Virus record (IMG/VR): IMGVR_UViG_2541047712_000002
Origin: a virus
Lineage: Duplodnaviria > Heunggongvirae > Uroviricota > Caudoviricetes
Direction: 5' to 3' (one strand)
Length of the DNA: 64,000 nt
In this document: positions 54,001-57,000 of the stretch, piece by piece
How the letters are laid out: the number at the start of each line of letters is the position of its first letter
Numbering within the stretch: position 1 is the first letter of the stretch
Position numbers: made by a program

Positions 54001-57000
54001 CGCTACGGGCAACTTAAGGAGAACGAAACCATTACTATCCAAGCGAAACGATTCACTGCCACCATCACAAGAACACCTAGTCGTAGAGTGGCCTTGATCA
54101 AAAAAGTCACAACCGAATAAAAATACAATGATAAGTATTTACTTACTTATCTTTTGTGTATAAGATGACTTTGTTTTCGTTGAGACGCGACTGTTTGAAC
54201 TTAAATACAAGTGCAAACGAAGAAGTCTATCTGGCAGTAGCCTAATAAGCCAAACACCAGCGAGGTCAGTTTCCAGCCTCGTTACCGAAATGGGACACAC
54301 TGAGCGAGTGTGATTGCAGAACGCAGGAGGGAACATTCATGTTCCCTCCGATGAAGTAACAGAATGGGCGGTTGGTATATTTTCAACTCCATATGACTCC
54401 CGGATTCTTAGCCACTGACCGCCCATCCTGTTACGTCATTTGTTCAATTATGTCGTTTATACTGGGTTAAAAAGCGGCGACGTAGCCCGGCTGGTATGGT
54501 TAGCCAGCACACAACGTTGAGGCCATTACATTTTTATCAATTCTAAGGTTCTATTCACAGAGATACCGGCGAGCGTTGATATGTAACATGTTGGGCAAAC
54601 ATTCAATCGGAGTAGTGGCCTCAACGTTGTGAAGACAGGATTGTTGTGTAGGTTTAACCACTGTTGCCATTGGTGCCTGTTTTCACAACAAATGATTCCA
54701 TACATCACATTGTATAAATTACAAAGTAGGTGCTGTCCTCAGAAACATCATCTACTTAAAGATTTTGCCTTCTACTATTGAGCGAAGTCGAAAGCGTCTG
54801 GCACTAACGAAAAGTGCAAGTAGCGGTGCGTTTCCTGGCAGAAACTAAACCGTCGCGATTGGCACTGTTGAGTAATAAATACTGGCAGTGCTGAATTGAT
54901 GGTGTAGCTCAGCGGTAGAGCAGTTGGCTGTTAACCAACTGGTCGGTGGTTCGAATCCACCCACCATCGCCAATTTAGGGGAGTTAGTCCGTAGAGGTAG
55001 CGGTGTAGACTGTAAATCTACTGTCATGGCGACTCGGGTGGTTCGACTCCATCACTCCCCACCAAATTGCCGGTTTAGCTCAGCGGGAGAGCGCGAGAGC
55101 CAAAGCATCGTTTCTACTTCGGTAGACAGCCTTGCTGGTCAAATGACAACGATTCGATGTTAGGCCAGAGGTCAGCGGTTCGAGTCCGTTAACCGGCACC
55201 AATACAACGATAAGATCATTACGGTTAATCGTCGTTCATGTGCACAATGACTGGTCGAAAGGTAGTGATCTTACCGTTGTGGTGGATTCGCAGACTGATG
55301 CGATAGCTTTCTTGGATGTTAGGGAAATGCGGCCGCAAATCTTCCCTTTCGCGAGCGGTGATCGTCCGTAGTCCTAATTGGCTGCACCGTATGCCGGAGA
55401 TTCAGTACCGGCCACCACAACGGCCGGAGAGTAGGGAGCATGGTGCTCAAGCGGTCTTGAAAACCGTCCCATTGCGCAAGCGATGATGGTTCGATTCCAT
55501 TACTCTCCGCCAGACACAGCGTTGAGCGGTTTGGCCTTTTAATCACCCAGATTAAGACTCCGCTAACATAAACCAGACCGCTCAACGCTGTGATAGACAA
55601 TTACGGCAGACGTTCTTAACCATTGCTTCTTAGCATCGTAGCAACACTTTTTTTCAGCGCAAATAATTAAAGGGGCTTCGGCCCCTTTTTGCTTAGTTGA
55701 AATCCAAAGAATCAAGTTCTGCTTTAAATTTATCGACAATTTTCTCAACTTCAACAACAATTTCATCAATCACCTTTTCTTTGTGTTGATTAGAGTTGAG
55801 TGCTAAATAGGCATTTTCTAACTTATACCTAGACAGACTATTTTTAATCTCATCAGCGAATCTATTGGTGAAACCATTGGTTAACAGAATACTTCTCTCT
55901 CGGGGGGAAATAGGATACTTATCGTTGAGTTTTATTAGCCTCTTTAAATGTTTTTCATCCTTGATCACCCTCACTTTATTACCTGCGATTCTAAGCTCCC
56001 AGCCTATAAAACCAGGTAACAAAGAGTTGAACTCAGCTACTTTATCGGCTGCATTTTCCATCCTCAGCTCAATGCTGTTTCGCATATGCATAGGTAGGTC
56101 ATTAAATCTTTGAAGCAAATGTTGTCGGCAGGGGTTGTTGTAAGACCACAGAATTGCGAACGTAGCCCTTAAATGACGGTATCTTGAATCGATTTTAGGG
56201 GGCTCACGACCTCGAACCATTTCTTCAACATAAAACTCTACATCTTTTCGGTATTCGTTATCAAATATCACAGCAGCATAAGAGTCCAAATAATGAACTT
56301 TCGATATTGCTTCTTCAAAAAAAAGTTGGCCTTCGAAGAAGTTATACTTGCTTAGCAGGCTGTAAAGTCTCTTTGCGTCATAGGTTTTATTAGTGTCAAT
56401 ATTAAGGCCGAATGTAGCTATCAGCAGGCTTACATTAGGACTAATGCTGTTGCGCAGCTGTTCTATGTAAGCTCTCTTTTCATAATCGGCTGATGACGGC
56501 GAATAGAAGTCTTTATCTAAATAATCAAGAATTAAAACTATGTGGTTAATATATTTAATGTAAACGGAGTTTTTGGTTACATGGTAATAAATAGCCTTGA
56601 TGAGATTCATTCCCAGTTTTGCATTAAGTTCCCTATCATCCTGCAAGGTCTTGTTAACATCCTCAAGTAATCTATTATGCTGTTCAAGTAATATGCCGTA
56701 CCATTCCTTAAAAGAGGCTTTTTTCATTTCAAGGAGTGAAGCTGCCGTCAGCCTAGTGGCCCTCATTGCTGCCTTTGCACTATGCCTTGCCTCGTAAGCG
56801 GCCCATGCTGTGGCGAAAAATGCAAGTGAAGTGGCAAGTGTACCTATGACCTCTACGTTTTCCTTGACGGTATCCCAGAAAATAATCATCACTGTCCCAA
56901 GTATGAGGATTAACAAAACAGGCATTTTATCAGTGTCTTTGGTTAATTTTGAAACTGAATGATACCTAATCGACCATACCATTTCAGCTAGTTTAAAGCT

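Follow-up and report, generated by a model that had tools for sequence, protein, structure and literature searches.

What kind of RNA is made from a gene that has every part of a tRNA except the arm that decodes? The question is raised by a locus in the IMG/VR virus record IMGVR_UViG_2541047712_000002, from which a stretch of 64,000 nt was analyzed (referred to as the window); it represents an SSU5/Cyrano/CMS-2020a-type phage-plasmid of Escherichia coli. Inspection of the window reveals a tRNA-like gene of 133 nt with an oversized middle at positions 55069-55201 of the plus strand, on which all of the gene features described below also lie. At present, phage tRNA genes are taken either to supplement the codon repertoire or to stand in for host tRNAs that defence nucleases have cut (PMC10264068). 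We hold with moderate confidence that this gene instead specifies a non-decoding chimeric RNA, that is, a complete tRNA frame in which a conserved junction domain of about 75 nt replaces the anticodon stem-loop, and from this structure we infer the functional steps discussed below.

The tRNA framework of the gene is intact. The acceptor strands GCCGGTT (55069-55075) and AACCGGC (55191-55197) form 7 of 7 pairs and are followed by a discriminator A and an encoded CCA (55198-55201). Between them lie a D arm (GCTC-AGCGGGA-GAGC, 55078-55092), the variable loop AGGTC (55169-55173), and a T arm (AGCGG-TTCGAGT-CCGTT, 55174-55190) whose loop conforms to the canonical UUCRA pattern. These arms and motifs, and the coordinates of the gene, had been described in an original prediction made from the sequence alone, and they were borne out. 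The gene thus has the 7-bp acceptor stem, discriminator, 3' CCA, D arm and T arm of a canonical tRNA (RF00005), but in place of the 5-bp anticodon stem and 7-nt loop (U33, anticodon, R37) there is a grafted four-way-junction domain of about 75 nt (55094-55168). The D and T stems are consequently 81 nt apart, in agreement with the gap of about 80 nt reported earlier. The anticodon arm has been replaced, and no single excision restores it.

Annotation programs deal poorly with this arrangement. ARAGORN, which the original prediction had proposed as a check with its intron models included, made no call on the window copy in default, intron or transfer-messenger RNA (tmRNA) mode. A scan of the region against Rfam gave no report of the gene at E<=10, and the window copy searched alone against Rfam gave just a 12-bit partial tRNA match. 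The identical 133 nt are labelled "tRNA-OTHER" by the NCBI Prokaryotic Genome Annotation Pipeline (PGAP) in six complete E. coli plasmids, among them pDETEC87 (NZ_CP116198).

The origin of the tRNA frame can be traced with some precision. In CMS-2020a, the nearest relative, the flanks are 98-99% identical to those of the window and a normal 76-nt tRNA-Thr(UGU) gene stands at exactly the same site; P7, D6 and Cyrano carry the same 76-nt tRNA-Thr(UGU). Relative to that gene, a 15-nt anticodon stem-loop has been swapped for 73 nt (55095-55167; the new segment is 73-75 nt and the lost stem-loop 15-17 nt, depending on where the boundary is drawn). Outside the replaced segment the window gene matches the tRNA-Thr genes of P7, D6, Cyrano and CMS-2020a except in the D loop and at one variable-loop base, and the acceptor 5' strand is that of the P7 and CMS-2020a genes. 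The tRNA parts lie far beyond what chance would give. When a normal anticodon arm was placed in the window body as a control, ARAGORN called tRNA-Thr(UGU). By this comparison the frame is derived from the phage-plasmid's own tRNA-Thr(UGU) gene. The original prediction was right about the oversized middle, but the insertion of about 60 nt that it described turns out to be a replacement, with about 73 nt standing in for 15 and a net gain of 57 nt. The long form occurs in 11 of 709 plasmids that match this tRNA-Thr type, and no normal tRNA-Thr is left in the long-form plasmids examined; no other insert lengths were found in the same tRNA-Thr body. The D loop of the window copy departs from the ancestral AGTTGGTA, which the Salmonella copies keep.

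The structure of the domain was approached by comparing its homologues, and the model supported by that comparison is a nested four-way junction made up of a closing stem and three hairpins. The nested model was tested on an alignment of 12 sequences, and a motif-anchored parse covered all 14 variants of the domain. In the alignment, 94.3% of cells are paired under the model and 14 pairs have changed on both sides, giving a covariation score of 0.308 against 0.107 for shuffled alignments; none of 500 shuffles scored as high. Taken helix by helix, the observed pairing was reached by 2 of 5000 shuffles for the outer pairs of the inner stem S1, by 1 of 5000 for hairpin b and by 42 of 5000 for hairpin c, although these shuffles, like those of the whole alignment, ignore kinship between the sequences. 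The covariation check across homologues that had been suggested at the outset was run, and the helices of the domain do covary.

The closing helix is reminiscent of an anticodon stem. Its 5' strand (55094-55101) consists of C27, G28 and A29, a bulge of G30 and A31, and then G32, C33 and C34, and lies opposite GGCCAG (55163-55168), so that the pairs are 27-43, 28-42 and 29-41 and, beyond the 2-nt bulge, 32-40, 33-39 and 34-38. C27-G43 is found in 11 of 12 members, and pair 33-39 is C-G, or G-C in the member L165. Pairs 28-42 and 29-41 are Watson-Crick in L165, in L167 and in Pseudomonas phage Littlefix, and the whole closing helix of L165 is Watson-Crick. Further in, AGCATCG (55104-55110) pairs with CGATGTT (55155-55161) to form S1, whose inner AUCG/CGAU is invariant and whose three outer pairs covary, the third being C-G, G-C, U-A, G.U or A-U. 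S1 is followed by a UU linker (55111-55112) and by hairpin a (TCTAC-TTCG-GTAGA, 55113-55126); both the linker and the hairpin stem, UCUAC/GUAGA, are invariant in 14 of 14 variants. The latter is the UUCG hairpin to which the original prediction had drawn attention, and it is real, but its tetraloop is interchangeable among UUCG, UCCG, UUAG, GUAA and GAAA. Hairpins b (CAGC-CTT-GCTG, 55127-55137) and c (GTC-AAAT-GAC, 55138-55147) behave differently from hairpin a in that their stems covary. The stem of hairpin b is CAGC/GCUG, CGC/GCG, CCC/GGG or GCC/GGC, around a loop of 3-4 nt of any sequence, and that of hairpin c is GUC/GAC, GGC/GCC or GG/CC, around a variable loop of 3-4 nt with one indel. 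The junction is completed by a single-stranded segment, J (AACGATT, 55148-55154), which reads AAC(G/A)A(U/C)(U/C) in all variants. Strand J is complementary to AUCGUU at 55107-55112, which suggests that an alternative pairing may be possible. Invariant junction strands and one invariant stem, together with covarying peripheral stems and free loops, make up a pattern that points to a binding or catalytic core.

Two competing folds were considered and set aside. The close variants do not differ anywhere in the first 37 nt; their 10 variable columns all fall in the last 38 nt, a distribution with a probability of (38/75)^10, or about 0.001. These variants alone fit both the nested fold and an H-type pseudoknot (CUGGU/GCCAG), so it is the divergent members that decide in favor of the nested fold. 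The pseudoknot, which would pair CTGGT (55135-55139) with GCCAG, shows no compensatory change, and 3 of its 5 pairs are broken in L165 and Littlefix (2 of the 12 members). The same two members contradict the stem originally proposed between CTGGTC (55135-55140) and GGCCAG (55163-55168), enclosing 22 nt; the sequences are there, but the comparison lends no support to their pairing. The thermodynamic optimum computed with the cloverleaf constrained ("Model C") is more stable than the nested fold, at -46.6 versus -42.0 kcal/mol, but its inner helices are broken by substitutions in Jgk1 and Salmonella.

The distribution of the domain is broad. All told, the domain is represented by 14 distinct sequence variants in at least six different tRNA bodies, carried by SSU5-like and P1-like phage-plasmids, N4-like phages of E. 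coli and Pseudomonas, jumbo-phage contigs and lambdoid-like prophages. BLAST and pattern scans found near-identical copies in E. coli, in E. albertii (P1-like IncY), in Salmonella plasmids and in the N4-like coliphage Jgk1. Pattern scans of metagenomes and of genomes, the latter with the loop of hairpin b fixed at 3 nt, were too specific, and the matches listed were almost all due to chance. A scan with a 14-mer from the domain added two divergent copies, in the contigs L023 (341 kb) and L027 (135 kb), and other scans and BLAST searches added L165/L168, L166 (259 kb), L167 (70 kb), L174 (171 kb) and phage Littlefix; the copies L172/173/175/176 and L177 lie in lambdoid-like prophage regions. 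Scored with the covariance model R2, the window copy reaches 101 bits and the other members 61-97 bits. No Rfam family other than tRNA matches the members, and the domain itself has no Rfam family. The Rfam tRNA model does match the long forms L169, L177 and L172: it passes over 15 of its own positions to bridge the roughly 75 nt of the domain, and scores 35-48 bits. A literature search, which was not exhaustive, found no description of a chimeric element of this kind, and it apparently belongs to a wider, undescribed family of phage tRNA-chimeric RNAs.

The tRNA bodies that carry the domain differ widely but are all kept in shape. Their acceptor 5' strands include GCCGGTT, GTCCGTT, GGTTTTT, GTTCACT, (A)GTCGGG, GGTGGTT, TGTGGTG and GCTTCGT, any of the four bases may serve as discriminator, and only some copies encode the CCA. 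Across the family, 6 of 7 acceptor pairs and 3 of 5 T-stem pairs covary, the 4-bp D stem is kept in 12 of 12 aligned members with one compensatory change, the D and T helices are paired in 100% of cells, and the variable loop is kept in 13 of 14 variants. The copy in Jgk1 is informative. Its acceptor and T arm are like those of the tRNA that is resident at the same locus in the related Schitoviridae PBM-3, KKP 3715 and Moo19, whereas its D arm, domain and variable loop are like those of the window; because Jgk1 joins resident ends to a window-type middle, the module has moved into another tRNA gene. Jgk1 and the window have no protein or open reading frame (ORF) in common. Recurrence in at least six unrelated tRNA bodies and in very different phages thus shows that the module passes from one tRNA gene to another and that selection maintains it, and the presence of the same module in different tRNA frames of many unrelated phages argues that the product is probably a working, non-decoding RNA. 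Of the possibilities raised in the original prediction, a tRNA with an embedded small RNA comes nearest, since the segment is a conserved, structured domain that covaries and recurs in many phages.

A few other features of these genomes came to light during the comparison. Jgk1 has a second tRNA-like gene of about 133 nt (2584-2716), with the acceptor UCCAGGA/UCCUGGA-A-CCA and the T arm GAAGG-UUCGAUU-CCUUC, which contains a different large internal expansion and draws no ARAGORN or Rfam call. At 1993-2118 of the same genome a match to tmRNA_permuted (RF04321) stays below the gathering score of 47, at 34.7 bits (E 8e-5), with weak tmRNA fragments nearby; this N4-like phage may encode a tmRNA-like gene of the permuted type there. 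In the Shigella virus Moo19, an annotated tRNA-Ile (2874-2946) resembles a fusion, as it has a 5' part that corresponds to tRNA-Ile(GAU) and a 3' T arm and acceptor strand that match the tRNA at the Jgk1 long-form site. Its acceptor strands are unpaired, which suggests a deletion between two tRNA genes.

How might a non-decoding chimera of this kind act? The gene would be co-transcribed with its tRNA array (Asn, Tyr, the chimeric gene, Ser), its 5' end would be cut by RNase P, and its 3' end would be trimmed or CCA-repaired like that of any tRNA. A stable RNA of about 133 nt would then build up, because the cell would presumably treat the chimera as a tRNA, on the same principle as engineered tRNA scaffolds. 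The junction domain would be the working part and would probably bind a factor that is conserved across the Gammaproteobacteria, so as to titrate or redirect it; a conserved bacterial partner is suggested by the fact that the carriers share no proteins and that their hosts span E. coli to Pseudomonas. Specific aminoacylation seems unlikely because neither the acceptor identity pairs nor the discriminators are conserved. Our best guess, offered as speculation, is that the domain acts as a decoy or aptamer and that its target is a host protein of defence or RNA processing which also makes contact with tRNA, the tRNA body serving as chassis and second handle. Phage tRNAs have been implicated in evading tRNA-targeting defences (PMC10264068). 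A bolder proposal, which we advance tentatively and think has a minority chance of being correct, is that these genes form a mobile class of phage RNA not recognized before, shared by temperate and virulent phages of several bacterial genera, in which a compact four-way-junction module places copies of itself in resident tRNA genes at the anticodon arm, relies on the tRNA for processing and stability, and serves counter-defence or host takeover, be it as a decoy or aptamer for a conserved bacterial nuclease or an enzyme that handles tRNA, or as a new small ribozyme.

Searches for partners among nucleic acids gave nothing of substance. Complementarity of the element to the 64-kb window is at chance level, and no relation was found to the P1 C4 RNA or its targets, for which duplex energies equal those of shuffled sequences. 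A 14-nt stretch of the domain (CGTTTCTACTTCGG) matches P1 exactly at 9563-9576, antisense to codons 10-14 of mod, the gene for the EcoP1I methyltransferase; the match falls in the invariant hairpin and has an expectation of about 0.02-0.05 in the sequence searched. It is probably due to chance.

There are several points that weigh against the view that the gene encodes a working, non-decoding RNA. Every functional step, from expression through processing to binding, is inferred, and no phage protein co-occurs with the element. The shuffles behind the covariation statistics do not take the relatedness of the sequences into account, and in the window copy itself the closing helix folds poorly, with tandem G.A and A.C mismatches as well as the 2-nt bulge. 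Sequence conservation must also be read with care. Comparison of the E. coli window with Salmonella plasmids gives an identity of 93-94% for the element, 92% for the neighboring tRNA-Asn and 71-81% for the flanking coding DNA; the downstream spacer cannot be aligned to that of the window in pSTM_Phi, and in pSA20094620.2 the whole tRNA region is just about 75% identical to the window. The high identity among enterobacteria could partly reflect recent recombination between tRNA arrays rather than purifying selection. That said, the covariation and the breadth of carriers are independent of the identity figures for E. coli and Salmonella. Finally, the element is rare, being present in 6 of 5426 complete E. 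coli genomes and in the 11 of 709 plasmids mentioned above, and such rarity is more to be expected of a niche or selfish element than of one with a general benefit.

Several other explanations deserve to be weighed against a non-decoding chimera. In an intron-containing tRNA the extra RNA would be excised, by self-cleavage and ligation by the host RtcB or by an endonuclease, to leave a functional tRNA. RtcB is present in E. coli, the extra RNA lies exactly at the anticodon arm, the site of all known tRNA introns, PGAP and tRNAscan-SE accept the gene as a tRNA of undetermined type, and the domain enters intact tRNA genes in the way that homing introns spread. However, when every way of keeping 17 nt by one excision was tried in three homologues (the window, Salmonella and Jgk1), at most 3 of 5 anticodon-stem pairs were recovered, and the would-be anticodon varies among copies: where a loop with both U33 and a purine at 37 can be kept at all, it would read GUU in the window but GUG in Jgk1; a broader ARAGORN deletion scan was too permissive to discriminate. 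At 75 nt the segment is too short for a group I intron, as the original prediction had recognized, it shows no recognizable group I core or bulge-helix-bulge motif, and no intron or ribozyme family matched at E<=10. The same domain, moreover, sits in tRNA bodies of different acceptor identity. The novel short intron that had been suggested is thus unsupported, and we consider excision to a functional tRNA very unlikely. A new small ribozyme on a tRNA chassis, cutting itself into tRNA halves or cutting a target in trans, is also unlikely, though not to the same degree. The compact multi-helix junction, in which the conserved residues are unpaired strands (UU, AACGAUY) and the pairs adjacent to them, is typical of catalytic or ligand-binding cores, the peripheral stems covary while the loops are free, and small ribozymes next to phage tRNAs are known, such as the theta HDV-like (hepatitis delta virus-like) ribozymes. 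Nonetheless, cmscan found no match to the hammerhead, HDV, twister, twister-sister, pistol, hatchet or hairpin ribozymes (at E<=10 in the window region and E<=1 in four other members), and the sequence has neither of the motifs of the hammerhead core, CUGANGA and GAAA. The architecture also recalls tmRNA, with an acceptor and T-arm module, a CCA end that is free and a larger domain where the anticodon arm would be, and a short frame, GCA UCG UUU CUA CUU CGG UAG, can be read in the domain, inside the invariant hairpin. An RNA that is aminoacylated and enters the ribosome in this manner is nevertheless extremely improbable here: position 3-70 is C3-G70 and not the G3.U70 pair of alanine identity, the acceptor pairs and discriminator vary so that no single synthetase identity is conserved, ARAGORN in tmRNA mode (-m) made no call, and the Rfam tmRNA models RF00023 and RF04321 have no match in the window.

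The remaining alternatives concern whether the domain imitates something else or does nothing at all. Hairpin a with its 5' UU might mimic the repeat handle of Cas12a (type V-A) and trap a Cas12-type effector, in the manner of an RNA anti-CRISPR. The string UU-UCUAC-N4-GUAGA partly resembles, in the stem and the U's before it, the V-A repeat, AAUUUCUAC-loop-GUAGAU, and hairpin a combines an invariant stem with a variable loop, as V-A repeats do. E. coli, Salmonella and Pseudomonas are not known to carry type V-A systems, which counts against such mimicry. Phage RNA anti-CRISPRs are documented, three of them of type V-A (PMC10651486). On the other hand, where the handle has A(-18) and U(-1), the domain has G and C/G, stems b and c and strand J have no counterpart in a CRISPR RNA, and there is no match to a CRISPR-DR family in Rfam, all of which make a Cas12a decoy quite improbable. 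The least eventful explanation would be a dead tRNA-Thr gene bearing a junk insertion, functionless and carried along by recombination. In its favor, few plasmids of the P1 and SSU5 types carry the element, and those examined that do have lost the normal tRNA-Thr. Against it, the domain recurs as 14 variants in at least six tRNA bodies among unrelated virulent and temperate phages of different hosts, with intact tRNA stems, compensatory changes in every variable helix and invariant junction nucleotides. A dead gene is strongly disfavoured on these grounds, to the point that we give it hardly any weight, and with it goes the earlier suggestion of a decaying tRNA or a fusion of two degraded tRNAs, in view of the perfectly paired stems in six tRNA bodies and the covarying helices of the domain.

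The chimeric gene is the third member of an array in which it is preceded by tRNA-Asn (54898-54972) and tRNA-Tyr (54978-55064) and followed by a 224-nt structured spacer and tRNA-Ser (55426-55512). The tRNA-Tyr(GUA) gene is present in the arrays of the window and CMS-2020a and absent from those of Cyrano, P7 and D6; its anticodon stem, GUAGA/UCUAC, consists of the same two 5-mers as hairpin a in swapped order. The best Rfam score of the tRNA-Ser(UGA) gene is to tRNA-Sec, at 46.6 bits against a gathering score of 47, and in the D6 record tRNAscan-SE assigned no amino acid to the corresponding tRNA-Ser(UGA). Directly 5' of tRNA-Ser, positions 55275-55423 could form a structured spacer RNA of about 149 nt. 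A 12-bp stem (CCGTTGTGGTGG/CCACCACAACGG) closes it, several hairpins lie within, and a T-arm-like GCCGG-N10-CCGGC adjoins the 3' strand. It is near-invariant in P7, D6, CMS-2020a and the E. albertii P1-like plasmid, is divergent in a Salmonella plasmid, and has no Rfam match; it may be another tRNA-derived RNA, freed by RNase P cleavage of tRNA-Ser. On the 3' side of tRNA-Ser, a strong, GC-rich UUCG hairpin at 55667-55690 (AAAGGGGCTTCGGCCCCTTT), flanked by runs of A and T, is likely to be a bidirectional terminator that serves both the tRNA operon and a convergent ORF of 445 aa (55693-57030, minus strand). Neither this ORF nor the small upstream ORFs have a Pfam match.

If the gene does make a non-decoding chimeric RNA, it would add a third use of phage tRNA genes to the two already recognized, one in which the tRNA is nature's own chassis for a conserved RNA module that is unrelated to it and unable to decode. 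Should the module bind or cleave a host factor, it would join the few known RNA-only tools of anti-defence or takeover, such as RNA anti-CRISPRs and pseudo-antitoxin RNAs, and phages would have invented the laboratory "tRNA scaffold" trick first. The element also offers a compact, naturally optimized design for stable RNA in E. coli and Pseudomonas. On the practical side it exposes an annotation gap, since such genes are missed by ARAGORN or filed as "tRNA-OTHER" by PGAP, and their domain is without an Rfam family.

Comparison with known systems helps to place the element. The closest genomic setting is that of RNAC and RNAD of T4 (species 1 and 2), small stable RNAs, 119-139 nt long, which are encoded where the tRNA cluster of the phage ends and have as yet no assigned function (PMC3014915, PMC9697503). 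A T arm and an end that resembles an acceptor are present in RNAC, but it is without a canonical D arm or a four-way-junction domain; covariance models R1 and R2 find nothing in the T4 region, and there is no sequence similarity to RNAC or RNAD. YrlA and other bacterial Y RNAs (RF02553) are tRNA mimics that use D and T arms as one module of a bipartite noncoding RNA (PMC4201824). In YrlA, however, the termini form a Ro-binding helix so that the acceptor end is closed, a GNCGAAN0-1G motif is present, and the gene adjoins rsr, whereas the phage element has a free acceptor end with CCA, is devoid of that motif and has no match to RF02553. Group I introns in the anticodon loop of bacterial tRNA genes likewise place foreign RNA at the anticodon region and are able to spread to intact alleles, but they are at least about 200 nt long, leave the halves of the anticodon stem intact and splice themselves out, whereas the stem-loop of the phage gene has been replaced and cannot be rebuilt.

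In architecture the closest relative is tmRNA (SsrA), which also has a tRNA-like module and a free CCA, with a large structured domain where a tRNA has its anticodon arm. Its reduced D arm, G3.U70 pair, pseudoknots, tag frame and length of about 350 nt are all foreign to the phage element. By the tests that define each class, then, the element is not a tRNA, an intron-bearing tRNA, a tmRNA, a YrlA RNA or a known ribozyme. In its presumed way of working it is like an artificial construct, the "tRNA scaffold" of Ponchon and Dardel, in which the anticodon stem-loop is swapped for a foreign RNA closed by a stem and which E. coli processes and protects as a tRNA (PMC3753655). The chimeric gene similarly keeps its acceptor, D and T arms and carries a stem-closed insert in place of the anticodon stem-loop. 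The scaffold is man-made, whereas the phage element is natural, conserved, mobile between tRNA genes and dedicated to one specific domain; by analogy, and assuming that processing and stability follow the same course, it would work like a natural tRNA scaffold.

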